The position numbers and the translations under genes are program-made. DNA of 32,000 nt, taken from assembly GCA_900540545.1 (NCBI GenBank), contig UQGJ01000014.1, positions 11,801 to 43,800 on the forward strand. Reading direction: 5' to 3'. The DNA comes from an uncultured Eubacteriales bacterium (GTDB taxonomy: Bacteria; Bacillota; Clostridia; Oscillospirales; Oscillospiraceae). Below, in pieces: positions 3,682-19,556 of the stretch. The number at the start of each line of letters is the position of its first letter. Position 1 is the stretch's first letter. Below the pieces are notes generated by a model. That model ran no database searches. It had not been told where the DNA came from and saw only the letters and a list, made by a program, of their open reading frames with translations.

Positions 3682-4539
3682 TTACAGCTCGTTTTGTTTA
3701 TAGGCGCGGAAGCCCTCGCCCAGGACGTCGTGGGCGTCGCAGACAATGAGGAAGGCGGCGGGGTCGATGTCCTTCACCATGCTCTTCAAGGTGACGATCT
3801 GCCGCTGCTTGAAGGCGCACATGAGGACCTGCTTCTCCTCGCCGGACCAGGCGCCCTCCCCCTTGAGGATGGTGACGCCCCGGTCCATCTCCTGGACGAT
3901 CTTGTCGGAGATGGCCTTGTGGTGGTCGGAGATGATATAGGCCACCTTGGCGGTGTCCATGCCGTAGAGCACCATGTCCATGACCATGGAGGAGATATAC
4001 AGGGCCACCACGCCGTAGAGGGCGCTGTTCAGGTTGCCGAAGGCGATGGCCACGGCCACGATGACCACCAGGTCGATGCCCAGCAGCAGCTTGCCCATGG
4101 GCAGCCAGGCCATTTTCAGCTTCATCAGCCGGGCGATGAGGTCGGTGCCGCCGGTGGTGGCCCCCTGCTGGAACACCACGCCCAGGGTGCCGCCCATGAT
4201 GACGCCGCCGTAGATGGTGGCCAGCATGGGGTCCATGGGCTCGAAGGTGTGGACCGCGTCCAGCAGGTCGATAAAGACCGACGAGACGAACATGGAGTAG
4301 AGGGAGGACACCAGCAGGTGGCCGCCGATGAACTTCCAGCCCAGGATGAACAGTGGGATGTTCAGGATGATGACCACTGTGCCGATGGGGGCCCAGGGCA
4401 GGATGGCGTTGATGATCTGCCCCACGCCGGTGATGCCGCCGAAGCCGATGTGGTTGGGGGCGTAGCACCAGTTGAAGCCGATGGCGTAGATGATGGACGA
4501 GATGGTGATCCAGAGATAGGGGAGCAGCTTCTGTTTCAT
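3682..4539 (-). CDS. YitT-family membrane protein (C-terminal DUF2179)
   Basis: 285 aa with multiple TM helices plus a C-terminal soluble domain (VTILKGEGAWSGEEKQVL...IVCDAHDVLGEGF) typical of YitT/DUF2179. GGAGG RBS. Confidence 0.88.
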   Translation of the reverse strand: MKQKLLPYLWITISSIIYAIGFNWCYAPNHIGFGGITGVGQIINAILPWAPIGTVVIILNIPLFILGWKFIGGHLLVSSLYSMFVSSVFIDLLDAVHTFEPMDPMLATIYGGVIMGGTLGVVFQQGATTGGTDLIARLMKLKMAWLPMGKLLLGIDLVVIVAVAIAFGNLNSALYGVVALYISSMVMDMVLYGMDTAKVAYIISDHHKAISDKIVQEMDRGVTILKGEGAWSGEEKQVLMCAFKQRQIVTLKSMVKDIDPAAFLIVCDAHDVLGEGFRAYKQNEL

Positions 4540-4558: not shown

Positions 4559-6802
4559 TTACATCAGGGTCAGCTGCTCCTCGCCCCGGTCCTCTTCTTT
4601 CAGGAGGGCGCCGGCCACGGGCAGGCTGCGGGCCCGGTAGCGGGCGGCGTTGACCACGGTGGAGCCCTCCAGGGGGTAGGCGGCTTCCACCTTGTATTTG
4701 GGCTTGAGGGTCATCACGTTGACGCCCTGGGTGCTGCGGGTGGCCTTGGGGGCCAGGGAGGCGGTGTGGAACACCAGGGCGCGGCCCTCGGTGGAGCGGA
4801 CCACCATCTCCATGTCCTCTTTCAGCAGGTAGGCCGCCACCAGGGGAGACTTGTCGCTGTACGCGCCGGTGAGGCGCTTGCGGCGGGTCTGGGTCTGGTA
4901 GCCGGACAGCTCCACCCGGGCCACCTTGCCGTTGGCGAAGAAGAACAGCAGGTTGCCGGTGTAGTCGCCGGGGATGCAGGCCCAGAGGAAGCCCTCCCCC
5001 TCGTCGAAGCCCAGCTTGCCGGGGAGGTAGTCCCCCAGGACGCTGGCCTTGGCGTCGTCGAAGTCGGACAGCCGGGCCTTGTAACACTGCTGCCGGTCGG
5101 TAAAGACCATGAGCTCGTCCCGGTTGTTGGCCTCCCACTGCTGGAAGGGGCCGTCCCCCTCCTTGTACTTCTGCTCCGAGGCCATGCGCAGGGAGGCGGG
5201 GGTGATCTTCTTGAAGTAGCCCTCTTTCGACAGGAAGACGTTCACCGGGTAGTCGGGGGCGGCTTCCTCCTCCTCCGGCTCCTCCACGAGCTGGTGCTCG
5301 TAGACGATGTCGGTGCGGCGGGGGACGGCGTACTTCTTCTTCACGTCCTTGAGTTCTTCCATGATGATATGTTTGATGCGCTTGGGGTTATTCACGATGT
5401 CCTGGAGGTCGGCGATCTCCTCCTCCAGGGAAGAGGTTTCCTCGATGCGCTTCAAGATATACTCTTTGTTGATGTTGCGCAGCTTGATGTCGGCCACGTA
5501 CTCGGCCTGGATGGTGTCGATGCCGAAGCCGATCATCAGGTTGGGGATGACCTCGGCGTCCTCCTCGGTCTCCCGGATGATTTTGATGGCCCGGTCGATG
5601 TCCAGGAGGATTTTTTTCAGGCCCTTGAGCAGGTGCAGCTTGTCCTGCTTCTTCTTCATCACGAAGTAGGTGCGCCGCCGGACCCCGTCCATGCGCCAGG
5701 CCGTCCACTCCTCCAGAATCTCGCCCACGCCCATGACCCGGGGCATACCGCCGATGAGGATGTTGAAGTTGCAGCCGAAGGAGTCCCGCAGGGGGGTCAT
5801 GCGGAACAGCTTCTGCATGAGCTTGTCCGGGTCGGTGCCCCGCTTCAGGTCCACCGTCAGCTTGAGACCGGACAGGTCGGTCTCGTCCCGCATGTCGGCG
5901 ATTTCCTTGATTTTGCCGCTCTTCACCAGCTCGGCCACCTTGTCCATGATGGCCTCCACGGTAGTGGAGTAGGGTATCTCAAAGATTTCAATGAGGTTTT
6001 CCTCTTTGACATACCGCCACTTGGCCCTGACCTGGAAGGAGCCCCGGCCGCTCTGGTAGATGGCGGCAAGCTGGCTGCCGTCGTAGATGAGCTCGCCGCC
6101 GGTGGGGAAGTCGGGAGCCTTCAGGGTGGACATGAGGTCGTGGTTGGGGTTTTTCAGGTATTCGATGGTGGTGTCGCAGACCTCTCCCAGGTTGAAGCCG
6201 CAGATGTTGGAGGCCATGCCCACGGCGATGCCCATGTTGGAGGACACCAGTACGTTGGGGAATGTGGTGGGCAGGAGGGTGGGCTCCTGGATGGTGCCGT
6301 CGTAGTTGGGGCCGAAGTCCACGGCGTCCTGGTCGATGTCCCGGAAGAACTCGGCGCAGATGGGGTCCAGCCGGGCCTCGGTGTACCGGCTGGCGGCCCA
6401 GGCCATGTCCCGGGAGTAGACCTTGCCGAAGTTGCCCTTGGAGTCCACCAGGGGGTGGAGCAGGGCCCCGTAGCCCCGGCTGAGGCGGACCATGGTGTCG
6501 TAGATGGCCTGGTCGCCGTGGGGGTTGAGCTTCATGGTCTGGCCCACGATGTTGGCGGATTTGGTCCGGGCGCCGCCCAGCAGCCTCATGGTGTACATGG
6601 TGTACAGCAGCTTGCGGTGGGAGGGCTTGAAGCCGTCGATCTCCGGGATGGCCCGGGAGACGATGACGCTCATGGCGTAGGGCATGTAGTTGATCTCCAG
6701 GGTCTGGGTGATGGGCTGTTCCATCACCTCGCCGCGGATGCCCAGCACGTTGGGGTTGTCCACCCGCTTGGCCCCGTCCTGGGGCGTTTTTTTCTTAGCC
6801 AT
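4559..6802 (-). CDS. parC: Type IIA DNA topoisomerase subunit A (ParC/GyrA family; ParC-like because the C-terminal domain is short and no GyrA box was seen)
   Basis: 747 aa with MPYAMSVIVSRAIPEIDGFKPSHRK and the active-site AASRYTEARL (catalytic Tyr). I found no QRRGGKG-type GyrA box in the C-terminal domain. Confidence 0.93.
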   Translation of the reverse strand: MAKKKTPQDGAKRVDNPNVLGIRGEVMEQPITQTLEINYMPYAMSVIVSRAIPEIDGFKPSHRKLLYTMYTMRLLGGARTKSANIVGQTMKLNPHGDQAIYDTMVRLSRGYGALLHPLVDSKGNFGKVYSRDMAWAASRYTEARLDPICAEFFRDIDQDAVDFGPNYDGTIQEPTLLPTTFPNVLVSSNMGIAVGMASNICGFNLGEVCDTTIEYLKNPNHDLMSTLKAPDFPTGGELIYDGSQLAAIYQSGRGSFQVRAKWRYVKEENLIEIFEIPYSTTVEAIMDKVAELVKSGKIKEIADMRDETDLSGLKLTVDLKRGTDPDKLMQKLFRMTPLRDSFGCNFNILIGGMPRVMGVGEILEEWTAWRMDGVRRRTYFVMKKKQDKLHLLKGLKKILLDIDRAIKIIRETEEDAEVIPNLMIGFGIDTIQAEYVADIKLRNINKEYILKRIEETSSLEEEIADLQDIVNNPKRIKHIIMEELKDVKKKYAVPRRTDIVYEHQLVEEPEEEEAAPDYPVNVFLSKEGYFKKITPASLRMASEQKYKEGDGPFQQWEANNRDELMVFTDRQQCYKARLSDFDDAKASVLGDYLPGKLGFDEGEGFLWACIPGDYTGNLLFFFANGKVARVELSGYQTQTRRKRLTGAYSDKSPLVAAYLLKEDMEMVVRSTEGRALVFHTASLAPKATRSTQGVNVMTLKPKYKVEAAYPLEGSTVVNAARYRARSLPVAGALLKEEDRGEEQLTLM

Positions 6803-6836
6803 TGGTATCAGTCCTTGTCATTGAGTGTATCGTCCT

Positions 6837-8570
6837 TTATTCCGGCAGACCAATGACGCCGGTTTGGAAGAGGGCGTCGTCCAGACCGCTTGCCTTGCGG
6901 TTGCGGAGGTAATCTTTATAATAATGAGCTCGGGGGAGGGACATCCAGTATTCGTAGGTATCGGGTAACGCTCCGTCGTGGCTTTTTTTCAATTCCGCTT
7001 CATACCGTTCTCTGGCGGCATAGATATCATTCCGGGCCCACCAGTTATAGCCATCCAGATAGTTCAGATAGAATTCGTCCCAGTCGGAGAAGGTCTCCTG
7101 TGCCATTCGTGCGGCGGGTTCCACAAGTTCCAGGGCATCCTCATAGGTAAGGTAGCCCGCGGTGTAGCCCCACTGCGCCATACTGGACATCCGGGATAAG
7201 TCCCAGGCCAGAATGCCCTTCTCCCCCCACCGCTCACTGATTTCCTTGGTGTAGAGCCACATGTATCGGTCGGTTTCGCCAGACGAGGCGACGAGCGCGG
7301 CAAACTCCTGGTCAGTGAGGCCATTGGTAATTTCGGCGGCCTCCTGAAAACTGTCGTTGTGGCCGTGGGGGGTCATACGCTGGATCAGGGGAATGATGTC
7401 CTCGCGGCCTGTGACGCCCCAGTTGGTTGCCAAGCCATCCCGGGTGCCCTTTACGGATTCCGCGGTGCGCTCATACATACCGAAGAAGATAGGTTTTCCG
7501 ACGGGCGCGGGAAGGCCGTATTCTGCGCCGTAATACTGGTATCCGTAAATCAGGCCCATGGACACAGCCCAGTCCTCCAGATTTGAACCCTCTGCCACCG
7601 ATTTGTCCTCGGTGATGAGTACCCGACTGTCCTTCCCATCCCACGCTACTTTTTGACCAAAGAATTCGGCCACATAGCGGGCGGGGATGAGGGTGTGGCC
7701 CTCGGTGGCGTAGGGGGCCACGTCCATCTCCACCGGCTTGTCGTCCACAGTGGCGGTGGTGCTGCCCAGAGTCATGGTGACGGTGGACCCGGCCCGGGTC
7801 ATCACGATTTCCTGGGTATCCGGTACCCATTCCACATCGGCGCCCAATGCCTCGGCCACAGCTCGGATGGGCACCATGGTGCGGCCGTTGTGGGCTTCAA
7901 GGGCCACATCCATCTTGATTTGCGCCCCATCCAGGAATATCTTCAGAGTCTTTCGGTCCGCCCGGCAGGCTTCCAGTCCAGCGATTACCTTGTCCTTCGT
8001 GGTTTGGGAGGCCAGATACATATACTTTCCAGACAGGAGATCCTCCGTAGTCATACCAAGGTAATCCAGCGCGTCCACCACGCGGCCCCAGCCATCCGCC
8101 GGACCGGGGCTTGAACTCTGGTATACGATGCGGGCACGGCTTTCCTCCACCACCATGTGGTAATAGAGTTCGTCCGGCTCGTGGGTCTGGAGCCATTGTT
8201 CTTCACACCAGAGGAGGTTGTTATACATGGAATAAAAGCAACCACGTGTATCGGGAGTATTGCCGAAACCATAATTGTCTCCGCATTTGATTCTGATGAG
8301 GGCAAGTTCATAGCAGGCCCCAATAGAACTTTTTTTCAGGCCCTCCTCAGGCTCTATTTTCTTCGCTCCGTTTCTTGCCGTCTCCCGAAGAGCCTCAATT
8401 TTAGTCCAGGTTTCGGGGAGGTAGACGGGATCTCCAGGAAATACAATGTAGTCCCCTTGATCGATCCACTCAGGCGTAACGGGGATCACAGGGGTCTCCG
8501 CGGCCAGGGCGGGGGCGGACAGGGAGAGCGCCAGTGAGAGGCACAGCAGGAGCGAACACAGCTTTTTCAA
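6837..8570 (-). CDS. Secreted protein P1: signal peptide + variable Cys-containing N-domain + copper-amine-oxidase-N-like stalk domain + DUF1266-like C-domain
   Basis: TTG start with AAGGAGG RBS. Signal peptide MKKLCSLLLCLSLALSLSAPALA-AE. Stalk motif NGRTMVPIRAVAEALGADVEWV...TLIPARYVAEFFGQKVAWDG. DUF1266-like ILAWDLSRMSSMAQWGYTAGYLTYEDALELV...SDWDEFYLNYLDGYNWW. Confidence 0.88.
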   Translation of the reverse strand: MKKLCSLLLCLSLALSLSAPALAAETPVIPVTPEWIDQGDYIVFPGDPVYLPETWTKIEALRETARNGAKKIEPEEGLKKSSIGACYELALIRIKCGDNYGFGNTPDTRGCFYSMYNNLLWCEEQWLQTHEPDELYYHMVVEESRARIVYQSSSPGPADGWGRVVDALDYLGMTTEDLLSGKYMYLASQTTKDKVIAGLEACRADRKTLKIFLDGAQIKMDVALEAHNGRTMVPIRAVAEALGADVEWVPDTQEIVMTRAGSTVTMTLGSTTATVDDKPVEMDVAPYATEGHTLIPARYVAEFFGQKVAWDGKDSRVLITEDKSVAEGSNLEDWAVSMGLIYGYQYYGAEYGLPAPVGKPIFFGMYERTAESVKGTRDGLATNWGVTGREDIIPLIQRMTPHGHNDSFQEAAEITNGLTDQEFAALVASSGETDRYMWLYTKEISERWGEKGILAWDLSRMSSMAQWGYTAGYLTYEDALELVEPAARMAQETFSDWDEFYLNYLDGYNWWARNDIYAARERYEAELKKSHDGALPDTYEYWMSLPRAHYYKDYLRNRKASGLDDALFQTGVIGLPE

Positions 8571-8696
8571 CGGGGAGACCTCCTTTTTATCCGGGGGACT
8601 GCAAAAATACGGCGCTGTGGAGGGTGTTCCAGGTTCGGGCGCAGCCCAGAACCGGGGGCGAAACGAGAAGCGGAACCCTATTCGCCGTGACCGTAT
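8571..8696 (-). promoter_or_regulatory. Conserved ~125-nt structured leader/intergenic element upstream of P1 (paralogous copy at 10413-10532)
   Basis: A long-range stem AAATACGG / CCGTATTT encloses about 75 nt, including the hairpin GGTTC(T)GGGC-TGC-GCCCGAACC. On the minus strand it is followed by TTTTT and then the RBS. Confidence 0.35.
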
Positions 8697-10412
8697 TTAC
8701 TCAGGTAAACCGATGACGCCGGTTTGGAAGAGGGTGTCGTCGAGCTGAGAGAAGTTCTTGATGGAGATGTAGAAATTTGCGCGGGGCTGCTCCATCCAAG
8801 TCTCCCAGTTGCCGGGGACCTGCATACTGCTGGTGGCCATTCTGGCCTCATATTCCGCCATGATTGTGGCCACGTCGTTGCGGGCCCACCAGTTGTAGCC
8901 GTCCAAATAGTTCATATAGAACTCGTCCCAGCTGGTGAATGTCTCCTGGGTCAGTCGGGCGGCGGGCTCCACCAGTTCCAGAGCCTCGGCGTAGGTGAGA
9001 TACCCGGCCGTATAGCCCCATTGGACCAGCGTTCCCATCCGGGAGAGGTCCCAGGCCAGGATGCCCTTGTCGCCCCACCGCTGGCTGAGCTGCTTGGTAT
9101 AGGGCCACATATACTTGTCGGTCTCGCCGGAGGCGGCGACAAGAGCGGCGAACTCCTGGTCGCTGAGGCTGTTAGCGATGGCGGCGGCCTCCTGGAAGGA
9201 GTCGTTGTGGCCGTGGGCGGTCATGCGGGTGACCAGCTCGATCAGGTCCTGGCGGTTTTGCACGCCCCAGGCGGAGACCAGGGAATTCCGGGTATTCTGG
9301 ACCTGCTGGGCGGTGCGCTCAAACTGGCCGAAGCGGACCTGGCTGTCCCGGTAATAAGAGGCGACGCCCAGGTCGATTTTATTCCGAATCAGCCCCATGG
9401 CTATGGCCCAAGCCTCCAGGTTGGAACTCTCCGCCACAGACTTGTCCTCATTGATCAATACCTGGTGCTTGATTCCGTCCCAGTCCACCGTTTGTCCGAA
9501 GAACTCGGCCACATAGCGGGCGGGGATGAGGGTGCGGCCCTCGGTGGCGTAGGGGGCCACGTCCATCTCCACCGGCTGGCCGTCCACCGTGGCGGTGGTG
9601 GAGTCCAGGGTCATGGTGACGGTGGAGCCGGCCCGTGTGAGGACGATTTTTTGTCCCTCTGGCACCCAGGTCACGTCGGCGCCCAGGGCCTCGGCCACGG
9701 CGCGGATGGGCACCATGGTGCGGCCGTTGCGGGCCTCCGGGGGCACGTCCATGGACAGCTCATTGCCGTCCAGCCAGATTTCGATATGGTTGAAGTAGGC
9801 GCCCCATCCGGCGGCCACCTCGGCCCGGAGGGTCTCCTGTTCCTCGGCGGTGAAAATCTCGGTGTCGGTGAGCTGATTGAGGGTGAACTGGGGAAATTCC
9901 AGCAGATAGGGGATGTATGCGTAGAGTTGTTCGCCCACGCCATAATTGCGCAGAACACCCCGGGCGGCCCACAGCAGCAGGACATATTTCTGCTGGTCGG
10001 TGAGACCCTCCAAAAGTGCGCTCGTCCCGTCTTCCAAGTAGTAGGACAGGTGGACATCGTGAGGGGTTTTTACGCCGTTGTTATTCCGAATCAGGCGGAG
10101 CTCCAGCAGCGCCCGCTCGAACAACACACCCATATCAAAGGAGTTGTCCGACCGCCGCTCGGGCAGGGCGTTAAAGTCCTTGAGCATGGGCAGGGTGGCG
10201 TTGCTGACGGGACCCCACCGCACAATCTCCCGGATGTCGGTGATGACCTTCCAGTGCTCCGGCTCATAGGCGGCGGAACCGGGGAAGACGGCGTACTCCT
10301 CCTCGGGACACCAGGGGGGAGGCGTGGGGGTGACGGCCTCCGCGGCCAGGGCGGGGGCGGACAGGGAGAGCGCCAGGGAGAGACACAACAGGAGCGAACA
10401 CAGCTTTTTCAA
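8697..10412 (-). CDS. Secreted protein P2, paralogue of P1 (signal peptide + variable N-domain + stalk domain + DUF1266-like domain)
   Basis: The signal peptide is identical to that of P1. It has the same stalk and DUF1266-like motifs and the same C-terminal tail LFQTGVIGLPE. Confidence 0.88.
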   Translation of the reverse strand: MKKLCSLLLCLSLALSLSAPALAAEAVTPTPPPWCPEEEYAVFPGSAAYEPEHWKVITDIREIVRWGPVSNATLPMLKDFNALPERRSDNSFDMGVLFERALLELRLIRNNNGVKTPHDVHLSYYLEDGTSALLEGLTDQQKYVLLLWAARGVLRNYGVGEQLYAYIPYLLEFPQFTLNQLTDTEIFTAEEQETLRAEVAAGWGAYFNHIEIWLDGNELSMDVPPEARNGRTMVPIRAVAEALGADVTWVPEGQKIVLTRAGSTVTMTLDSTTATVDGQPVEMDVAPYATEGRTLIPARYVAEFFGQTVDWDGIKHQVLINEDKSVAESSNLEAWAIAMGLIRNKIDLGVASYYRDSQVRFGQFERTAQQVQNTRNSLVSAWGVQNRQDLIELVTRMTAHGHNDSFQEAAAIANSLSDQEFAALVAASGETDKYMWPYTKQLSQRWGDKGILAWDLSRMGTLVQWGYTAGYLTYAEALELVEPAARLTQETFTSWDEFYMNYLDGYNWWARNDVATIMAEYEARMATSSMQVPGNWETWMEQPRANFYISIKNFSQLDDTLFQTGVIGLPE

Positions 10413-10532
10413 AGGAAAGACCTCCTTTTTATCCGTGGGACTGCAAAAATACGGCGCTGTGGGGGGTGTTCCAGGTCCAGCCCAGAACTGGGGACGAAAC
10501 GGGAAGCGGGACTCGCTCGCCGTTGACCGTAT
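10413..10532 (-). promoter_or_regulatory. Second copy of the conserved leader (upstream of P2)
   Basis: Aligns with 8571-8696, sharing AAATACGG...GCGCCGTATTTTTGCAGTCCC.CGGATAAAAAGGAGGTC. The internal hairpin carries a short deletion. Confidence 0.35.
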
Positions 10533-11666
10533 TTACTCCAGCAGGCCGATGACGCCGGTTTCGAAGAGGGTATCGTCGAAGATGGGGGCCAGGTCGGGGT
10601 CGGCCTTCATCTCCAGATAGAGCTTGCCCCGGGCGCTCTCCCACACGTTCTGGTCCAGGCCGTTACTCTTGGACCACCAAGTGTAGCCGTCCAGATAGTT
10701 TTCATAGGCCTCGTCCCAGGAGGAGAAATTCTCGCTCAGGAGGGTGGCGGCGGGCTCCAGCAGCAGGAGGGCCTCCTCATAGGTCACGTACCCGGCGCTG
10801 TAACCCCACTGGACCAGATTGCTCATGCGGAACAGATCCCAGGCGAGGATGCCGCGGTCTCCCCACTTTTCGTCCAGGGCAGACGTGAACTCCCACATAT
10901 AGGGGGGCCAGTCGAAGGACGGATTGCTGGCGGCCTGGGCATCCAGGGCGGCCTTTTCCTCCGCCGTCAGGTTCCTCGCATCCTCTGCGGCGCTGAAAAA
11001 CGTGGCGTTATGGCCATAGAAGGTCATACTCAGGACGGACTCCACCAAATCGTCCCGTTCCGGGATGTTCCAAGAGCTGCCGCTCAGCACCCGGGCGCTC
11101 TGCTTTGCGGTGGACGCGCTCCGGCGGTACAGGCCGAACCAAGCCGGGCTTCCCTGGTTGAGCTTCGCCAGCATGGCCCCCATGGGGAGGGCCCACGCCT
11201 CCAGGTTGGAGTCCCCCACCACCGATTTGTCCTCGGCAATGTCCACCCGGCGGGCCTCGCCGTCCCAGGCCACGGTCTGGCCGAAGAATTCGGCCACATA
11301 GCGGGCGGGGATGAGAGTGCGGCCCTCGGTGGCGTAGGGGGCCACGTCCATCTCCACCGCCACGCCGTCCACGGTGGCGGTGGTGGAGTCCAGGGTCATG
11401 GTGACGGTGGAGCCGGCCCGGGTCATCACGATCTCCTGGGTGTCCGGCACCCATTCCACGCCGGCGCCCAATGCCTCGGCCACGGCGCGGATGGGCACCA
11501 TGGTGCGCTCGCTGCGGACCTCCGGCGGGACATCCAGTTTCAGTTCCCGGTCATCCAGGAAGAGCTTGATGCCGCCGTCCTCTTGCGCCGCCTCCGCGGC
11601 CAGGGCGGGGGTGAGGAGGGGACAGGCCAAGGCCAAGGTCAGGATCACCGCCAGCAGCTTTTTCAT
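10533..11666 (-). CDS. Secreted protein P3: signal peptide + stalk domain + DUF1266-like domain (no variable N-domain)
   Basis: Internal ATG at 11666 with RBS GGAAAGGAG. Signal peptide MKKLLAVILTLALACPLLTPALA-AE. The Pro/Ser/Arg-rich upstream extension to 11810 is rejected. C-terminal tail LFETGVIGLLE. Confidence 0.85.
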   Translation of the reverse strand: MKKLLAVILTLALACPLLTPALAAEAAQEDGGIKLFLDDRELKLDVPPEVRSERTMVPIRAVAEALGAGVEWVPDTQEIVMTRAGSTVTMTLDSTTATVDGVAVEMDVAPYATEGRTLIPARYVAEFFGQTVAWDGEARRVDIAEDKSVVGDSNLEAWALPMGAMLAKLNQGSPAWFGLYRRSASTAKQSARVLSGSSWNIPERDDLVESVLSMTFYGHNATFFSAAEDARNLTAEEKAALDAQAASNPSFDWPPYMWEFTSALDEKWGDRGILAWDLFRMSNLVQWGYSAGYVTYEEALLLLEPAATLLSENFSSWDEAYENYLDGYTWWSKSNGLDQNVWESARGKLYLEMKADPDLAPIFDDTLFETGVIGLLE

Positions 11667-11700
11667 GATTGACTCCTTTCCAGTCGGGGGGGATACGGAT

Positions 11701-14649
11701 TTAGAAATCCAGCTCGTCCCAGGGGATGATTTTGGCGTTCTCAGGGGGGAGGGCGGCGGGGGGCGCGGAGACCTCCTTGGACTCGGAGGAGGCGGTGACG
11801 GTGAAGTCAAACTGGTTCTTATAGTGGACCTCGCCGGTCAGGGTCTGCTTTCCGCCGGCGCTCTTGGCGTCCATGGTGATTTGGAAATCCACGAAGCGAC
11901 CCAGGGTCCGGCCGGGGCGCATATCCATCTCCATGGCGTAGTCGCCGTTGTCGTGGACGGTGACGGTGAAGGCGCAGGCCCGGAAGGCGTCCTCGCCGTC
12001 CAGAGGGTCGTAGGAGTAAGGGACATCAGGGTCCGGGGCGGTGAGGTCCCGGATGAGGTCGTTGACGGTCTTGGTGTCCAGGGAGTAGGTCAGGGCGTTG
12101 CCCGCGCGGGTGAAGCGGCCGTCGCCCAAGAGGAGCGCCACCTGGTCGGCCTGCTCCAGCAGGCCGGCGTAGCTGTCCACGCCTACGGGGTCATAGTAGG
12201 ACCACTTCAGGCGGCGTGCGATGACGCTGTCGTAGAGCATGGCGCCCACGTTGAGGAGGGGGAGGGAGTCCACGGTGCCGTCCTTGTCCACGGTCTCGGT
12301 GGGCAGGGCCGCGCCGGGGGTCACGTAGAAGGGATAGAAGGAATCCAGGTCCATGGAGACCCAGTCGTCCTTGCCCACCGACTCGTCCAGCAGAGAGAAC
12401 AGGGGGGACTGGAGGTACAGGAGCTGGGTGTCCACGTTCCAGTAGAGCTTAAAGGTGGTGGACTTCAGCAGGGTCTTGAGGGTGGAGAGGCTGAACTTGG
12501 CTTCGCTCTGGTCCAGCATCTTCTGAACGTCGGCCCAGTCCTCCTTCGTAAGCTGGGAGAGGACCCCGGCCAGGTCCAGCTTGAGCTCGCACTCCATGGA
12601 GCCCTTGCCGGCCACGGTGGTGGCGTCGATTTTCACGGTGTAGGTCCTGTCGCCGTCCAGGCTGTTGAACAGGGTCAGGTCGATGGTCTCGCTGGAGGTG
12701 GTGCGGATGTTCCGCTGGGCGGTGTCCACCGCCTTGCCCAGCAGGGTGGAGAGCATCCGGTCGATTTGGGTAAAGTTTTGATTCAGCTCCGCGGCGATGG
12801 CCTCAGGGTCGAAGAGGACGGCGGTATCGTAGCCCGCGTCCCAGGCCAGGCCGCAGCCGAAGGCATCGGCCAAATCCCGGAGGGGGACGTAGGTGCGGCC
12901 GTCCTCGGCAAAGGCGGGGGAACTCATGGTGTATTTGCGGTCCTTGCCGTCGGTGGTGAGGGTGTACTTTTTGCCCTCCAGGGGGAAGGTCACGGTGACG
13001 CCGCCCTTGTCGCAGACGGCGGCGTTGGTGGTCTCGTCAAAGGAGACGGTATAGCCCAGGGCTTCGGCCAGGGCGCGGACGGGGATCATGGTGCGGTCGT
13101 TCCGGGCCACGGGCTTGGCGTCGGGGAAGGAGAGGTAGGCCCCGTTGAGCATGACGCTGAGCTCGCCGGGGACGCCGCCCAGCTCCCGCTTGTGGGCGTC
13201 CCGCTGGGCCTTGGCCTCGGCGTTGGCAGCCCGGTCGGCCTTCCAGCTCTCGTAGAGGGCGGCGTAGGCGGACTCCTTCACGGTAAGGTAGTTATCGTCC
13301 ATGTAGTCCTGGAGACTGGTATAGCGGGGATAGTAGTGGGAGGCGTTATACTCGCCGGACTGGAACCAGCGCTCCACGTCGGCCACGAAGGCGGCGGTGT
13401 CCTCGGGCTCGGCGGCCTGGAAGGCGGCCCACTGGTCCTGGGCGGCCTGGGCGGCCTCCTGCTCCTGGATCATGTAGTAGAGCATCTCGGTACGGAACTG
13501 CTCCTCGCTGTCGGTGGTGGGAGCCAGCTCCATATACTCCTGCTTGGAGTCATAGTAGCGGTCGGCGTTATAGACTTCCTTGAAGTACTGGTCGGCGTCG
13601 AAGGCGGCGAATTCCTCCGGGTGTTCCGCGGCCCAGGCGTCCACCTCGGCCTGCATATCCGCGTTTGCGGCCTGCGTATCCAGCATGTCCAGGAGCATGG
13701 CCAGCCGGAATTCTTCCTCGGTATCAAGGCGATAGGCGTCCATATATTCTTCTTTGTCGCCGTAATAGGGATAATGCGTTTCCAGCCAGGCGTCGGCGTC
13801 GAAAGCGGCGTACTCGTCGGGGTGGGCGGCGCTCCATGCGTCGGCCCGGGCCTGGCGCCGCTCGGCGCCCACCTGGCTCTGCACCCACAGCCAGGTCATC
13901 TGGCGCAGGAATTCCTCCTCCGTGGCGTACCCGTAGGAGGACATGTACTCTTCCATGGTCCAGTAGCTGTAAGTATCCTCAAAGAACTCCATGGGGTCGA
14001 ACTCGGCAAATTCCTCCGGGTGTTCGGCGGCGTAGGCGTCGATGTCGGTTTGCTGTTCGGCGGCGGTCTCCTGCTCCTGGATCATGAAGTAGAGCATCTC
14101 GGCGCGGAACTGCTCCTCGCTGTCGGTGATGGGAGACATCTCCATAAACTCCTGCTTGGAGTCATAGTAGCGGTCGGCGTTATAGACTTCCTTGAAGTAC
14201 TGGTCGGCATCGAAGGCGGCATACTCCTCCGGGTGTTCGGCGGCCCAGGCGGCCACCTTCTCCTGGATCATGCCCGTCCAATACTGCTCGGAGAGCCAGT
14301 CCTCCCGCATGTTTTCCTGGAAATCGGCCTCGGTATAGAGGTCGAAGTAATACATATAGTCCTTCTTGGCGTAGTAGCTGCCGTAGCGCGCTGTGAACCA
14401 GCCGTCGGCGTCGAATTCGGCGCTGTGGGCGGCCCAGTAGGCGTCTTTCCAGGCTGCGGCGTCGGCTGCCTCCTGAGCCTGTTCGCCGTACTCGTCCTCG
14501 GTCATGTACTGGCGCTCCAGCATGTCTTCCAGGGAGGTATAGCCGCGCTCCTTCCAGAGGGGTGGATCGGTGTCCTGGTACGCCAGGGCGGGGGCAAAAA
14601 GAGTGCAGGACATTGCCAGGGTCAGGACCAGCGCCAGCAGTTTTTTCAT
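11701..14649 (-). CDS. Large secreted protein P4: signal peptide + six ~62-aa acidic/aromatic repeats + stalk domain + ~380-aa unassigned C-domain
   Basis: 982 aa. Signal peptide MKKLLALVLTLAMSCTLFAPALA-YQ. The repeats resemble AWAAEHPEE(Y/F)AAFDADQYFKEVYNADRYYDSKQE.ME...TDSEEQFR.EMLY.MIQEQE. Stalk motif NDRTMIPVRALAEALGYTV...GRTYVPLRDLADAFG. Confidence 0.85.
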   Translation of the reverse strand: MKKLLALVLTLAMSCTLFAPALAYQDTDPPLWKERGYTSLEDMLERQYMTEDEYGEQAQEAADAAAWKDAYWAAHSAEFDADGWFTARYGSYYAKKDYMYYFDLYTEADFQENMREDWLSEQYWTGMIQEKVAAWAAEHPEEYAAFDADQYFKEVYNADRYYDSKQEFMEMSPITDSEEQFRAEMLYFMIQEQETAAEQQTDIDAYAAEHPEEFAEFDPMEFFEDTYSYWTMEEYMSSYGYATEEEFLRQMTWLWVQSQVGAERRQARADAWSAAHPDEYAAFDADAWLETHYPYYGDKEEYMDAYRLDTEEEFRLAMLLDMLDTQAANADMQAEVDAWAAEHPEEFAAFDADQYFKEVYNADRYYDSKQEYMELAPTTDSEEQFRTEMLYYMIQEQEAAQAAQDQWAAFQAAEPEDTAAFVADVERWFQSGEYNASHYYPRYTSLQDYMDDNYLTVKESAYAALYESWKADRAANAEAKAQRDAHKRELGGVPGELSVMLNGAYLSFPDAKPVARNDRTMIPVRALAEALGYTVSFDETTNAAVCDKGGVTVTFPLEGKKYTLTTDGKDRKYTMSSPAFAEDGRTYVPLRDLADAFGCGLAWDAGYDTAVLFDPEAIAAELNQNFTQIDRMLSTLLGKAVDTAQRNIRTTSSETIDLTLFNSLDGDRTYTVKIDATTVAGKGSMECELKLDLAGVLSQLTKEDWADVQKMLDQSEAKFSLSTLKTLLKSTTFKLYWNVDTQLLYLQSPLFSLLDESVGKDDWVSMDLDSFYPFYVTPGAALPTETVDKDGTVDSLPLLNVGAMLYDSVIARRLKWSYYDPVGVDSYAGLLEQADQVALLLGDGRFTRAGNALTYSLDTKTVNDLIRDLTAPDPDVPYSYDPLDGEDAFRACAFTVTVHDNGDYAMEMDMRPGRTLGRFVDFQITMDAKSAGGKQTLTGEVHYKNQFDFTVTASSESKEVSAPPAALPPENAKIIPWDELDF
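13240..14465 (-). repeat. Intragenic tandem repeats of P4 (six units); units 2 and 5 are near-identical at DNA level
   Basis: 14069-14256 versus 13457-13646 show about 13 mismatches in about 190 nt by eye. The other units are recognisable only at protein level. Confidence 0.7.
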
Positions 14650-15137
14650 GTTTGACTCCTTTCCAGTCGCGCGGAAGGATTTTGCACGATGTACGAGCGG
14701 GTCTCCGAGAGGTCCTGGGGGTTGCGGAGGATGTGGTCGTAGTAGTCATCCTGCCACACGGGCTTTCCCCATGTTCGGGTGGTAAAGCCCTTCAAGGCAT
14801 TGATGACCTGTGGCAGTGATGTAGGGGCCGCCGACCCCGGTGGCCCGTCTCCGGTCAATTGTATCAACAGGTGGACATGGTCCGGCATAATGATATATTG
14901 GTCTACATGGACATCGGGGTAAGCACAGTCAATGCCTTGAATCAACTGGTCTACAATCTGGCCTAAAGGGGTGAGCTGAAGCCGCGGGCCGCCGGGGTCG
15001 GCGGCCCCTACGGGCAGAAGAGAGGAAAAGATGTTTTGGTTTCTGACCTTGGCGCAGATGGTGACGAAATAAAATCCGGGCTGGGAATAATCGTAATGCT
15101 TCAAATGGTGATATTTGCGCACCGGATATGGGTTCAT
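14646..15137 (-). CDS. Y1/HUH transposase-like protein (IS200/IS605 TnpA fold; RayT / REP-associated tyrosine transposase-like), apparently orphan
   Basis: ATG at 15137 with GAGGTG RBS. HUH motif in IIMPDHVHLLIQ, the family pattern GKPVWQDDYYDHILRN, and a candidate catalytic Tyr in TRSYIVQNP. Its stop overlaps the P4 start (ATGA). Confidence 0.82.
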   Translation of the reverse strand: MNPYPVRKYHHLKHYDYSQPGFYFVTICAKVRNQNIFSSLLPVGAADPGGPRLQLTPLGQIVDQLIQGIDCAYPDVHVDQYIIMPDHVHLLIQLTGDGPPGSAAPTSLPQVINALKGFTTRTWGKPVWQDDYYDHILRNPQDLSETRSYIVQNPSARLERSQT

Positions 15138-15150
15138 CCATCCCACCTCT

Positions 15151-17133
15151 TTACGAAATATCCGCCAGCTCCAGGTATTTATAGCCGTTTTCGGCAATGT
15201 GGTCCTTTCTGCCGCTGAGGTTGTCGCCCAGGAGGAGGTCGAAGGTGGCAGCGGTCCGGGCTACGTCCTCGGGCATGACCTTGATGAGACGGCGGGTGTC
15301 CGGGTTCATGGTGGTCAGCCACATCATGTCCGGCTCGTTCTCGCCCAGGCCCTTGGAGCGCTGGATGGTGAACTTTTTGCCCTCCAGCTCCCTGAGGATG
15401 TCGGCCTTCTCCGTCTCGTTATAGGCGAACCAGGTTTTTTCCTTGAAGGTGATTTCGTAGAGGGGGGATTCCGCGATATAGACGTAGCCCCGCTGGATGA
15501 GGGTGGGGGTCAGGCGGTAGAGCATGGTGAGGACCAGGGTTCTGATTTGGTAGCCGTCCACGTCGGCGTCGGTACAGATGACCACCTTGTTCCACCGCAG
15601 GTTCATCAGGTCGAATTCCGGCAGGTCCTTGGCCCGCTTGTCGTGGACCTCCACGCCGCAGCCCAGGACCTTCAGCAGGTCGGTGATGATCTCCGACTTG
15701 AATATCTTGCCGTAGTCGGCCTTGAGGCAGTTCAAGATTTTGCCCCGGATGGGCATGATGCCCTGGAAGTCCGAGTCCCGGGCCAGCTTCACCGAGCCCA
15801 GGGCCGAGTCGCCCTCCACGATATACAGCTCCCGGCGCTCGGTGTCCTTGGTGCGGCAGTCCACGAATTTCTGGACCCGGTTGGAGATGTCCATGCTGCC
15901 GGTGAGCTTTTTCTTGATGTTCAGGCGGGCCTTCTCGGCGGACTCCCGGGAACGCTTGTTAATGAGGACCTGCTCGGCGATTTTGCCCGCGTCGAAGGGG
16001 TTCTCGATGAAGTAGACCTCCATCTGGGCCTTCAAAAACTCGGTCATGGCCTCCTGGACGAACTTGTTGTTGATGGCCTTTTTGGTCTGGTTCTCGTAGG
16101 AGGTCTGGGTGGAGAAGTTGTTGGAGACCATCACCAGACAGTCCTGGATGTCGGCCCAGGTGATTTTGCTCTCCGACTTCTGGTATTTGCCCTGCTGCTT
16201 GAGGTAGCCGTCGATGGCAGAGACCAGGGCGGACTTCATGGCCTTTTCCGGGCTGCCGCCGTGCTCCAGCCAGGAGGAGTTGTGGTAGTGCTCAATGATC
16301 TGCACCGTGTTAGAGAAGCACAGGGAGACGGAGAGCTTCACCTTATACTCCGGCTTGTCCTCCCGGTCCCGGCCCTTGCGCTCGGTCTGCCAGAACACGG
16401 GGGTGGTGAGGGCGTTCTCCCCGGCCAGCTCCCGGACGTAGTCCACGATGCCGTTTTCGTACTTGAACTCGGTGGTCTCGAATTTGCCCCCCACCTGGTT
16501 GCGGAAGCGGAAGGTGATGCCCGCGTTGACCACGGCCTGGCGCTTCATCACATCCAGGTAGAACTCGGGGGGGATATTGGTGTCGGTGAACACGTCCAGG
16601 TCGGGCAGCCAGTGGAATTTGGAGCCGGTCTTTTTGCCGGTATAGGGGGTCTTGGTCAGACCGCCCACGTTCTCGCCCTTTTCAAAGTGGAGGGTGTACT
16701 CGAAGCCGTCCCGGTGGATGACGGCGTCGAAGTACCGGCTGGCATACTGGGTGGCGCAGGAGCCCAGGCCGTTGAGGCCCAGGGAGTACTCGTAGTTGTC
16801 GCCGTCGCCGGTGCCGTACTTGCCGCCGGCGTACAGCTCGCAGAACACCAGCTCCCAGTTGAACTTCTGCTCCTTCTCGTTCCAGTCCACCGGGCAGCCC
16901 CGGCCGAAGTCCTCCACCTCGATGGAGTGGTCCTCGTACCGGGTGACGGTGATGACGTCGCCGTGGCCCTCCCGGGCCTCGTCGATGGCGTTGGACAAAA
17001 TCTCAAAGACGGCGTGCTCGCAGCCCTCCAGCCCGTCGGAGCCGAAGATGACGCCGGGGCGCTTGCGGACCCGGTCGGCCCCCTTCAGGGCGGAGATGGA
17101 TTCGTTGCCGTAGTGTTTACTGCTCTTTGGCAT
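15151..17133 (-). CDS. parE: Type IIA DNA topoisomerase subunit B (ParE/GyrB family)
   Basis: 660 aa with the GHKL ATPase motif EILSNAIDEA, Toprim LYIVEGDSALGS, PIRGKILN and DADVDGYQIRTL. Confidence 0.93.
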   Translation of the reverse strand: MPKSSKHYGNESISALKGADRVRKRPGVIFGSDGLEGCEHAVFEILSNAIDEAREGHGDVITVTRYEDHSIEVEDFGRGCPVDWNEKEQKFNWELVFCELYAGGKYGTGDGDNYEYSLGLNGLGSCATQYASRYFDAVIHRDGFEYTLHFEKGENVGGLTKTPYTGKKTGSKFHWLPDLDVFTDTNIPPEFYLDVMKRQAVVNAGITFRFRNQVGGKFETTEFKYENGIVDYVRELAGENALTTPVFWQTERKGRDREDKPEYKVKLSVSLCFSNTVQIIEHYHNSSWLEHGGSPEKAMKSALVSAIDGYLKQQGKYQKSESKITWADIQDCLVMVSNNFSTQTSYENQTKKAINNKFVQEAMTEFLKAQMEVYFIENPFDAGKIAEQVLINKRSRESAEKARLNIKKKLTGSMDISNRVQKFVDCRTKDTERRELYIVEGDSALGSVKLARDSDFQGIMPIRGKILNCLKADYGKIFKSEIITDLLKVLGCGVEVHDKRAKDLPEFDLMNLRWNKVVICTDADVDGYQIRTLVLTMLYRLTPTLIQRGYVYIAESPLYEITFKEKTWFAYNETEKADILRELEGKKFTIQRSKGLGENEPDMMWLTTMNPDTRRLIKVMPEDVARTAATFDLLLGDNLSGRKDHIAENGYKYLELADIS

Positions 17134-17169: not shown

Positions 17170-17199
17170 AGTATAGCTCATTTCATAGAGGGGAGTCAA
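17170..17199 (-). promoter_or_regulatory. Candidate sigma-A promoter of the topoisomerase B gene
   Basis: The minus strand reads TTGACT (17199-17194), 18-nt spacer, TATACT (17175-17170). An AT-rich UP-like tract lies upstream (17200-17231), and the RBS GAGGGGAG precedes the ATG at 17133. Confidence 0.55.
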
Positions 17200-17249
17200 T
17201 TAAGAGTTCAGAATTCAGAATGAAGAAGGAAAAATGTGACATGGGAGGA

Positions 17250-17284
17250 CAAAAAACCGCCGCATCCCTGTGGGATGCGGCGGT
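17250..17284 (-). terminator. Rho-independent terminator (minus strand) with no annotated gene upstream of it
   Basis: A 12-13 bp perfect stem CCGCCGCATCCC-TGT-GGGATGCGGCGG. On the minus strand it is followed by TTTTTT (the A-run at 17251-17256). Confidence 0.65.
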
Positions 17285-17595: not shown

Positions 17596-17844
17596 ATGGC
17601 GGAGGCGGTCAAAGCCTTTTCCTTCCGCAGGCGGGGGGAGAGCGAGCGGGACCAGGAGGTGCGCGCCCTGCGGGAGGGGCTGACCAACACCCGGACCCTC
17701 ATCAACCAGGCCTATACCCTGTTCAATTCCACCGGAGACCCGGACCTCATCGAGTCCTACGTCTTTGAAATCAATTCGCTCCAGGCCCGGTATTCCTACC
17801 TGCTGCGGCGGGTGAAGGAGCTGGAGCAGGAAGAGGGGGCCTGA
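17596..17844 (+). CDS. yaaL: DUF2508 / YaaL-family small protein
   Basis: ATG at 17596 with RBS GAAAGGAGG. The 82-aa coiled-coil-like sequence (...ESYVFEINSLQARYSYLLRRVKELE) is followed directly by bofA, as in B. subtilis yaaL-bofA. Confidence 0.75.
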   Translation: MAEAVKAFSFRRRGESERDQEVRALREGLTNTRTLINQAYTLFNSTGDPDLIESYVFEINSLQARYSYLLRRVKELEQEEGA

Positions 17845-18880: not shown

Positions 18881-19556
18881 CCGCCTGCGGGCGGGGAGGG
18901 GGGGGAGCGACCCCCTCCGGGGGTGTCGCCTCCGGCGGGGGTCCTCTTTCTCATTTGAGAAAGAGGACGGAAAGAAAACCAGGGCCGCGGCCCTGGACCT
19001 AGGGGCGGCGCCAACGGGGCTTGGGGGTTGAGACCGGCTTGTGGGGACAAGTCTGCCTTTTTGCTTCCGCCCCGGCCGTTACGGCCTAATGTGCGGTTGG
19101 TCCACCTGTTGCGCTGGCGCGGCGCGCCTAGCGTGGCGAGTCCCGGCAAGGCGGGTGCAGAGACGGGCCGCCGAGGTCGGCGGCCCCTACGGCATGAGCC
19201 GAAGGTCTCTTGTAGGGGCCGCCCACTGGGCGGCCCGTGCAGACTGGCGATAGGCGCAAGACCCCGTAAAAGGCGCATAAACCTTGTGGCGGCTTGTTTG
19301 CACCGAGTAAAACGCAACTATTATCAAGTTTTGCCGGGTCATATGCCGAGGGGCGGCAGCCGGAGTTGTTCGGGCGCGTGCCAATACCGGGCTGCAACGG
19401 CTTTCAAGTCTTGCCAGCAAACGTGAACCGTACCGCCGCCCGGACGTTCCCTGGGTCCAGGGGGCGGCGGATAGGGCATTGAAAATGCCCGTGCCGCCTC
19501 CGGCCCTTCTTTCCGTCCCCTTTCTTCGAGAAGAAAGGGGACCCGCCGGAGGCCCC
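18881..19556 (-). repeat. Copy B of the hairpin-mosaic repeat family (inverted relative to A and C), bounded by ~55-bp terminal inverted repeats
   Basis: Ends 18929-18983 and 19500-19552 are inverted copies: CCTCCGGCGGG.TCC-[CTTTCT..AGAAAG palindrome]-GACGGAAAGAA. The interior is collinear with the reverse complement of copy A. Confidence 0.8.
19165..19236. repeat. REP/BIME-like doublet: two GTAG-headed GC hairpins in inverted orientation
   Basis: 19165-19190 is GGGCCGCCG-AGGT-CGGCGGCCC-CTAC, which has a GTAG head on the minus strand. After a 21-nt linker, 19212-19236 is GTAG-GGGCCGCCC-ACT-GGGCGGCCC. Confidence 0.55.

Follow-up and report, generated by a model that had tools for sequence, protein, structure and literature searches.

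A probable variable gene slot separating topoB and topoA, the type IIA topoisomerase genes of an uncultured Eubacteriales bacterium

In an uncultured Eubacteriales bacterium of the Oscillospiraceae, a gene cassette of 8.3 kb separates the genes for subunits B and A of a type IIA topoisomerase. The locus lies in a stretch of 32,000 nucleotides of contig UQGJ01000014.1 (positions 11,801 to 43,800; GenBank assembly GCA_900540545.1), called the window here, to which all coordinates without a locus number refer. The gene for subunit B (topoB, 15151-17133; ParE/GyrB-like, 660 aa) and the gene for subunit A (topoA, 4559-6802; ParC-like, 747 aa) are both found on the minus strand, as are the five genes in between. 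From topoB to topoA, the junctions measure, in order, +13 (15138-15150), -4 (an ATGA overlap, 14646-14649), +34, +120, +126 and +34 nt. This arrangement of open reading frames (ORFs), already given in the initial annotation, was reproduced in every junction from the ORF coordinates, and the AT-richer patches reported there within the cassette were found as well (GC content 0.47 at 8200-8400 and 0.48 at 15000-15200).

The gene next to topoB, denoted Y1 (14646-15137, minus strand; 163 aa, G+C content at third codon positions, or GC3, 0.65), codes for a protein resembling the transposases associated with repetitive extragenic palindromes (REPs), known as RAYT or TnpA_REP. Its 3' end overlaps, via ATGA, the start of P982 (11701-14649, minus strand), the gene of a secreted protein of 982 aa, in which N-terminal repeats are followed by Cu_amine_oxidN1 and by ~370 aa forming a conserved C-terminal domain. 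Three tandem paralogues follow on the same strand. P377 (10533-11666), the shortest, features a signal peptide, Cu_amine_oxidN1 and DUF1266; P571 (8697-10412, with a TTG start) carries in addition a variable N-domain between signal peptide and Cu_amine_oxidN1; P577 (6837-8570, GC3 0.68) is a paralogue of P571 with an identical signal peptide. P571 is preceded by a 120-nt leader (10413-10532, minus strand), a duplicate of the 126-nt leader of P577 (8571-8696, minus strand). According to Pfam and NCBIfam, Cu_amine_oxidN1 is present in all four non-Y1 cargo proteins, and DUF1266 also in P377, P571 and P577. Sec-type signal peptides were recognized on all four by reading the sequences.

The domain content of topoB is complete (GHKL ATPase, transducer, Toprim and C-terminal domains; Pfam GyrB, Toprim and GyrB_C), and the Toprim motif EGDSA and a DxDxDG motif are present. 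The topoA product features the DNA_topoisoIV breakage-reunion domain (Pfam), with the catalytic tyrosine in an RYTE motif, and a short C-terminal domain matching DNA_gyraseA_C below threshold only. The GyrA box (QRRGGKG) was not found in topoA, even with a loosened pattern. No NCBIfam equivalog cut-off for gyrase or topoisomerase IV was reached by either subunit: the best score of topoA was 581.6 with PRK05561 (cut-off 654), and the gyrA models gave 521-531 (cut-offs 877-902). Close relatives are named 'topoisomerase IV' or 'DNA gyrase/topoisomerase IV subunit A' in public records. The pair is treated here as a divergent topoisomerase IV-like enzyme.

A split of this kind might be an artefact of assembly or binning, or the product of a chimeric contig, as the source appears to be of the metagenome type and the REPs located inside Y1 could mislead assemblers. 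However, the same 8,351-nt interval was found in two independent metagenome assemblies (ENA) sharing an identical layout over at least 17.8-22 kb, and a third, partial contig (Logan) spans P577-topoA. The same scaffold is present in the nearest relative, and genes fill the corresponding interval in dozens of isolate genomes. An artefact is hardly credible.

Relatives were collected in a scan of one genome per species, which yielded 80 loci (topoA identity 73-84%), all from Oscillospiraceae of the Lawsonibacter/Flavonifractor/Pseudoflavonifractor/Intestinimonas group; the neighbourhoods of the interval between the subunit genes, called the slot below, were viewed. In 68 loci the topoB-topoA interval ranged from 14 to 5,552 nt, being ≤100 nt in 21 and >400 nt in 36 of them; two loci of the scan have no topoB in the 10 kb upstream of topoA. 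At its other end topoA adjoins a gene for a YitT-family membrane protein, a conserved neighbour located in the window 19 nt 3' of topoA (3682-4539, minus strand). This junction measured ≤100 nt in 54/66 of the same loci and >400 nt in 4/66, so the variability is specific to the topoB-topoA interval. Variable DNA was always found between the stop codon of topoB and the ribosome-binding motif of topoA, (A)AGGACTGATACC, retained in all loci. Even very close relatives may be unlike: the interval is 27 nt in L018 and 1,656 nt in L021, 53 nt in L009 and ~2,335 nt in L008 and L010; a DUF1266 gene is present in L058, 166 nt in L082, and a P982-like gene in L059 and L063. Among cultured relatives, the slot is loaded in Lawsonibacter faecis NSJ-52 (L005), Pseudoflavonifractor intestinihominis CLA-AP-H29 (L021) and Pseudoflavonifractor sp. 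Marseille-P3106 (L045), and empty in P. capillosus ATCC 29799 (L018) and Flavonifractor hominis CLA-AP-H34 (L024). On a neighbour-joining (NJ) tree of topoB plus topoA with 64 tips, the CuAO family requires a minimum of 15 changes (Fitch parsimony), as against 7 for sda and 6 for Y1.

The relatives thus show changing gene content within constant flanks, a mark of genomic islands and integration hotspots. In the window, however, no integrase domain was found, the borders are free of tRNA genes, and the cassette is not enclosed by direct repeats, and megablast searches of plasmid and phage collections gave no match to the cassette. The DNA between the subunit genes had at first been taken for an insertion. 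It is accessory, as intervals of 14-80 nt occur in some relatives and the cargo differs even among very close ones. The synteny of the relatives supports this part of the claim only; recurrence of the same families across the clade speaks against a single recent event.

The commonest slot contents are P982-like and DUF1266-type Cu_amine_oxidN1 proteins. The slots host also L-serine dehydratase genes (sdaAB plus sdaAA), Y1 genes, a conserved membrane protein of 62-67 aa, two small uncharacterised families, and further HNH endonucleases (free-standing genes in L032 and L070), SLH proteins, an S15 peptidase with an SLH domain, a BspA-type LRR protein and an AAA protein. The occupants belong to at least 11 families and are all co-oriented. 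Many, as those with SLH domains, LRRs or signal peptides, are envelope proteins like the cargo of the window; sdaAB/AA are metabolic. Orientation was counted from homology, since gene calling based on GC3 gave spurious antisense ORFs in L030, L036 and L062, in places where plus-strand genes supported by Pfam exist. Tblastn searches of 104 loci (~1.7 Mb) were carried out with the Cu_amine_oxidN1 domain, DUF1266, the C-domain of P982, SdaAA/AB, Y1 and the small membrane protein as queries; every match of these families fell within the slot, on the operon strand.

The same address was obtained from homologues of P377 in the protein database, for which a long contig was the sole criterion of choice: 6/6 DUF1266 homologues were located directly 5' of topoA and co-oriented with it. 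Both Y1 homologues sampled (2/2; 48-52% identical) were found in the order topoB-small ORF-Y1-topoA. In L095 a DUF1266 gene resides directly 5' of topoA although topoB is not upstream. The identities of SdaAA track those of the topoisomerase, as expected of long co-residence. Decayed remnants of Y1, directly 5' of topoA, were identified in L014 (2126-2352; Flavonifractor plautii ATCC 29863), L016 (9589-9945) and L026 (78-167), in slots otherwise almost empty, which indicates past residence followed by loss.

The gene for the small membrane protein, predicted to form two helices and marked by the motifs RRT[KR]LPR and W.DP[VI]TW, lies immediately 3' of topoB in distant lineages (L011 9778-9966, L016 9228-9431, L022 2316-2516, L093 7744-7947, L103 2733-2933, L104 5740-5940). 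It is absent from the window, and may have belonged to the operon ancestrally. Slots of relatives also contain palindromic repeats, REP-like ones among them. Two REPs with a GTAG foot reside in the slot of L066, and a 'double-foot' REP just 5' of topoA in L052. A second kind of palindromic repeat (…CTCCCTCAGTCAGCC…GGCTGACAGCTCCCT…GGGAGCC) was observed in the otherwise empty slots of L055 and L082.

The 8.3-kb region is best explained, with a probability of about 0.68, as the filling by one lineage of a long-lived, recombining and co-transcribed variable slot with resident families. Within the topoisomerase IV-like operon of the Flavonifractor/Lawsonibacter/Pseudoflavonifractor/Intestinimonas clade, the slot would extend from the stop codon of topoB to the conserved ribosome-binding site that serves topoA. 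The residents (the RAYT gene Y1, sdaAB/sdaAA, the small membrane protein, and secreted Cu_amine_oxidN1 proteins, whether or not they carry DUF1266) would be gained, lost, duplicated and swapped between lineages, and be joined occasionally by one-off genes (HNH, LRR, SLH, peptidase). In the window, the starting scaffold topoB-RAYT-P982-like-DUF1266-like-topoA, common to the nearest relative, would have been enlarged by a 1.84-kb tandem duplication giving P377, P571 and P577, of which the N-domains may have diverged, and the leader, signal peptide and Cu_amine_oxidN1 segments may have stayed alike or been homogenised. Turnover would proceed mainly by homologous recombination in the conserved topoisomerase flanks, along with local duplication and deletion; transposition of the cassette catalysed by Y1 would not be the main route. 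All seven genes, and probably those downstream, would form one long operon read from a promoter at 17199-17170, which would explain the co-orientation and tight packing of every occupant.

The history of the cassette can be read in part from its repeats. P377, P571 and P577 are tandem duplicates with a period of 1.84 kb (repeat families D1, D3, D5, D7 and D9-D11), and their identity profile is mosaic. Leader and signal peptide of P577 and P571 are 83-93% identical in the profile, and 94% over a 142-nt repeat. Identity falls to 28-45% in the N-domains, rises to 80-94% among all three paralogues in the Cu_amine_oxidN1 segment, and is 50-80% in DUF1266. The region 5' of P982, corresponding to the 3' end of Y1, resembles the region 5' of P377 (repeat D12). 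GC3 measures 0.85-0.96 in core genes, including both topoisomerase genes, and 0.83-0.88 in the cargo other than Y1 and P577. The cargo 'orthologues' of the nearest relatives are ~31-58% identical to the proteins of the window. Together with the incongruence of Y1 and topoA described below, duplicates, mosaic identities and atypical GC3 point to local duplication and to replacement of alleles between lineages.

In the nearest relative (L084; topoA 88% identical) the order is topoB-Y1-CuAO(612)-CuAO(560)-topoA, and Y1 overlaps the next gene in the same ATGA-type manner. As the scaffold is common to both, the split must be old in the clade, and the window holds an enlarged version of it. The idea of a one-off insertion linked to Y1 is not borne out, since the window version grew by tandem duplication in place.

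The N-terminal half of P982 (13378-14268) consists of five tandem repeats of ~67-71 aa (AEHPEE[FY]AAFDAD…), two copies of which are 91% identical as DNA over 207 nt; a recent internal expansion is indicated by the repeat sequences. The AlphaFold model of P377 is confident, with a pLDDT of 91; for the beta-rich domain, a PDB match was obtained with E. coli amine oxidase, in the N-terminal domain of that enzyme; no PDB fold match was obtained for the all-helical DUF1266 part of the model. Invariant W, R, H and Y positions in the DUF1266 alignment could mark a binding or active site. No defence system was matched by PADLOC among the five cargo proteins, P577 and P982 had no PDB sequence match, and no literature on the function of DUF1266 was found.

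Residues 87-89 of Y1 form an HVH motif, and Tyr149 belongs to a YxxxNP sequence; in the alignment of homologues both histidines are invariant, the tyrosine nearly so. The match to Pfam PF01797 (Y1_Tnp) is weak, and the score with NCBIfam NF047646 (REP_Tyr_transpos) is 53.3 bits, below the cut-off of 80, so that Y1 would be at best a distant RAYT member. The HUH-coding core is flanked by a pair of REPs, inserted in frame and inverted relative to each other. Hairpin 1 (14985-15011), made by GTAG and then a GC stem, encodes VGAADPGGP; hairpin 2 (14821-14847) encodes GPPGSAAPT. Without exception, the Y1 genes in slots of other lineages (L016, L040, L046, L051, L084, L099, L102) contain a REP pair of their own in the same two places. 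The REP sequence is lineage-specific, and the two copies within one Y1 gene usually match each other. In-frame REPs were considered as a new feature and discarded as such, insertions of this kind having been described within tnpA_REP genes of subclass 2.4 (Quentin et al. 2018, PMC6006769).

GTAG-footed palindromes are matched 7 times in the window, against 1.1 expected, and the REP is multicopy in the metagenome holding the organism, with a depth of 255 in run X1 versus ~1-16 in neighbouring bins of the cassette. Besides those in Y1, a REP doublet of the same GTAGGGGCCGCC type is located outside the cassette at 19163-19238; another REP, found singly at 820-846, is of the related GTAGGGGCGGC type. 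REPs were found neither in the 13-nt upstream junction of Y1 nor in its overlapping downstream junction, and the flanking layout of a REPtron is therefore missing.

The presence of a Y1 gene with intact HUH and Tyr at the promoter-proximal edge of the cassette invites the view that the cargo was brought in by an IS200/IS605-like or REP-bounded element with Y1 as its transposase, or that Y1 is a RAYT making the site a recombination hotspot. Y1 genes or remnants were indeed identified in the slot of at least nine lineages, REPs occur in slots devoid of a Y1 gene (L036, L052, L066), and REP-like hairpins number 1.9 per 10 kb of slot, compared with 0.8 per 10 kb of flanking DNA. The excess is nevertheless mostly due to the pairs inside Y1 genes. 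The ends of the cassette lack subterminal hairpins and REPs, the end junctions measure only 13 and 34 nt, and the REPs are found solely inside Y1. In the window, no subterminal left or right hairpins were detected at the ends of Y1, no tnpB and no additional Y1 copies. Scores are RAYT-like and not IS200-like, NF033573 reaching 20.7 (cut-off 55), and RAYTs are described as domesticated genes, present in one copy and not mobile as a unit (PMC6006769). Y1 stands by itself in the slots of L040, L099 and L102-104, most loaded slots are Y1-free, and the Y1-P982 junction, being common to L084, is old. The transposase view is accordingly quite improbable, and the insertion link to Y1 proposed at the outset is not supported: no transposon ends surround the cassette, and Y1 without cargo and cargo without Y1 both occur. 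Since hairpin ends are missing, the IS200 model is not reached, and Y1 and cargo are often found apart, Y1 is best taken for a RAYT, meaning a domesticated enzyme that processes REPs, and not for a transposase with cargo.

Y1 and topoA tell different stories. Identities are 46% for Y1 and 88% for topoA between the window and L084, 46% and 92% between L046 and L051, 58% and 79% between L084 and L040, which suggests allele replacement or an old polymorphism at the locus. Y1 and REP type of L084 are shared with L040 and L051, not with the window. A blastn boundary in the comparison with L084 had hinted that Y1 contains a recombination breakpoint at its first REP; this was dismissed, as divergence is spread along the gene in the alignment. 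An allele of a close strain was observed in runs X1 and X2, where contigs match the window up to 14741 and from 15153 onward. A contig of run X1 bridges the two points with 124 nt instead of 411 nt; the contigs of X2 stop at the same two boundaries. This variant lacks most of Y1 (14742-15152), of which the last 32 codons are kept; Y1 is therefore dispensable.

The slot would be part of one transcription unit. Between 3.5 and 18 kb, the only good match to a minus-strand promoter, as noted in the initial annotation, is a sigma-70-like sequence 5' of topoB (17170-17199, minus strand; TTGACT-18-TATACT, 10/12 consensus matches). Just 5' of this promoter, a strong intrinsic terminator (17249-17284, minus strand; dG -25 kcal/mol, then a T run) is predicted to insulate the operon from upstream transcription. 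No convincing promoter was found inside the cassette by consensus scan, and no canonical minus-strand terminator from topoB (17133) down to ~1574. Compact GC-rich hairpins with dG ~-20 kcal/mol or lower were called as terminators, a looser finder having given many weak intra-coding matches; strong terminators used elsewhere by this organism have dG -24 to -39 kcal/mol.

Stem-plus-T-run structures had been pointed out in the 120/126-nt leaders. These fold into multi-branch structures, and a stem preceding AUUUUUG is present in fact; the folds are no more stable than those of shuffled sequences (z = -1.6 and -0.7) and are not convincing as terminators. At the Rfam gathering threshold a tRNA only was identified, and nothing in the leaders. 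The genes of the train share one strand, are separated by short gaps and each have a Shine-Dalgarno sequence, and no terminator was found within the train, as is typical of an operon. On these sequence features, topoB, cargo and topoA are likely to be co-transcribed from the promoter of topoB, and the YitT gene is probably in the same unit as topoA. Lacking an internal terminator or convincing promoter, topoA may plausibly depend on read-through, and be expressed in a coupled manner. The co-orientation of all occupants fits selection against anything blocking transcription to topoA.

The junction 5' of topoA (6803-6836, minus strand) contains the ribosome-binding motif AAGGACTGATACCA and a degenerate second copy, AAGGACGATACACTCAATG. 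The sequence AAGGACTGATACCA-ATG, which starts topoA, is preceded by a degenerate AAGGACGATACACTCA-ATG opening a mini-ORF of 8 codons, the stop codon of which overlaps the start codon of topoA. The second copy may be the scar of a recombination joint or a device for translational coupling.

Several observations weigh against a recombining, co-transcribed slot as described. Recombination in the flanks is deduced from comparison. The NJ tree lacks a true outgroup, is built from two proteins that may themselves recombine, and is compatible with either direction of change, ancestral adjacency followed by gains or an ancestral loaded slot followed by losses. The sampling of homologues favoured long contigs, and the view of the relatives was limited to slot neighbourhoods. 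As to transcription, weak internal promoters can escape a consensus scan, and the RNA runs contained ≤8% of words, only short conserved fragments of related organisms being aligned. Strong terminators are located directly 5' of topoA in L012 (3537-3577), L077 (9864-9895) and L083 (9865-9896), and in L077, L083 and L095 topoB is missing within 8-10 kb upstream of topoA. Coupling of the subunits is therefore not obligatory in the clade.

The confinement of the resident families to the slot, always co-oriented in the loci viewed, would also be expected of an ancient, functionally integrated operon, in which cargo and RAYT are kept by a tie to the topoisomerase and empty slots are secondary losses. 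The DUF1266 gene of L095, which stays 5' of topoA without topoB, and the tracking of sda and topoisomerase identities agree with this proposal. About 1/3 of the lineages, however, have 14-100 nt between the subunit genes, and these are presumably functional; cargo proteins are 25-60% identical where topoisomerases are 80-90% identical; number and type of cargo genes vary between near-identical relatives; PADLOC and PDB sequence and fold searches gave no functional clue. Extracellular proteins are not known to be linked biochemically to a DNA topoisomerase. Such an integrated operon is unlikely.

A more daring thought is that a RAYT/REP system and the rapidly evolving, secreted proteins of the Cu_amine_oxidN1/DUF1266 family are truly linked to each other, and that both have their obligate home in the topoisomerase IV-like operon of this clade. 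By acting on hairpins of its own locus, the RAYT could make the slot a programmed site of diversification for envelope proteins; alternatively, the RAYT/REP system could work together with the topoisomerase. REP hairpins are classical binding sites of type II topoisomerase in E. coli. The thought remains a long shot. The adjacency of a RAYT gene to type II topoisomerase genes may merit testing all the same, given the old link between REPs and gyrase.

If the slot is part of one operon, a probably essential chromosome-segregation enzyme of common gut Oscillospiraceae would have one subunit translated from the distal end of a transcript of 12-15 kb, the middle of which is freely rewritten; this would put to the test the tolerance of a two-subunit enzyme for polarity and stoichiometric imbalance. 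With fixed flanks, fixed orientation and dozens of alleles, the slot would provide a natural system to follow the entry and exit of accessory genes in an operon. It also supplies a genomic address for two uncharacterised families, DUF1266 fused to an amine-oxidase N-domain and the P982-like proteins. Pipelines for annotation and synteny-based orthology should not expect adjacency of parE and parC in this clade.

On the opposite side of the topoB promoter, a DUF2508 (YaaL-like) gene resides on the plus strand, 5' of topoB (17596-17844). It is retained at this place in closer relatives and located elsewhere in distant ones.

The building blocks of the locus are known: hotspots between core genes, RAYTs with in-frame REPs, and tandem duplication of surface-protein genes. 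In the literature searched, no description was found of a parE/parC hotspot, nor of topoisomerase subunit genes enclosing a variable slot in which RAYT and Cu_amine_oxidN1/DUF1266 families reside. Chromosomal hotspots in which accessory genes accumulate between conserved core genes have been described in comparative genomics. Like these, the slot is a narrow interval with unlike gene sets in relatives, atypical composition and changes between close relatives. In contrast to them, it is embedded in an operon and separates the subunit genes of a single enzyme, with all occupants in the orientation of the operon; integrase, tRNA and direct repeats are missing, and a few resident families replace random cargo.

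REPtrons and the TnpA_REP genes of subclass 2.4 share with Y1 the HUH and Tyr residues, genomic GTAG-footed hairpins and two in-frame REPs (PMC6006769), and double-foot REPs, as in REPtron systems, are found in the relative L052. Y1 of the window differs in scoring below the NCBIfam cut-off for RAYTs and in lacking flanking REPs, and subclass 2.4 is a candidate assignment. The location of Y1 between topoisomerase subunit genes, found in several lineages, is not reported in the TnpA_REP literature searched. With IS200/IS605 elements Y1 shares the Y1 HUH fold family, as judged by the weak PF01797 match; unlike them, it features no subterminal hairpins, tnpB or extra copies in the window, and does not reach the IS200 model.

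Among topoisomerase loci, genes 39 and 60 of phage T4 are separated by a mobA homing-endonuclease cassette. Parts of a type IIA topoisomerase are split by selfish or accessory DNA there as in the slot, where HNH genes occur in L032 and L070. In T4, however, a single subunit gene is split, whereas the insertion in the slot is intergenic, far larger, and mostly made of secreted-protein genes. In E. coli, parE and parC are non-adjacent and belong to separate transcription units, in a fixed arrangement. There, as in the window, the subunit genes are separated by unrelated genes, and adjacency is not required; in contrast to the E. coli arrangement, the interval in the slot is hypervariable and probably co-transcribed.

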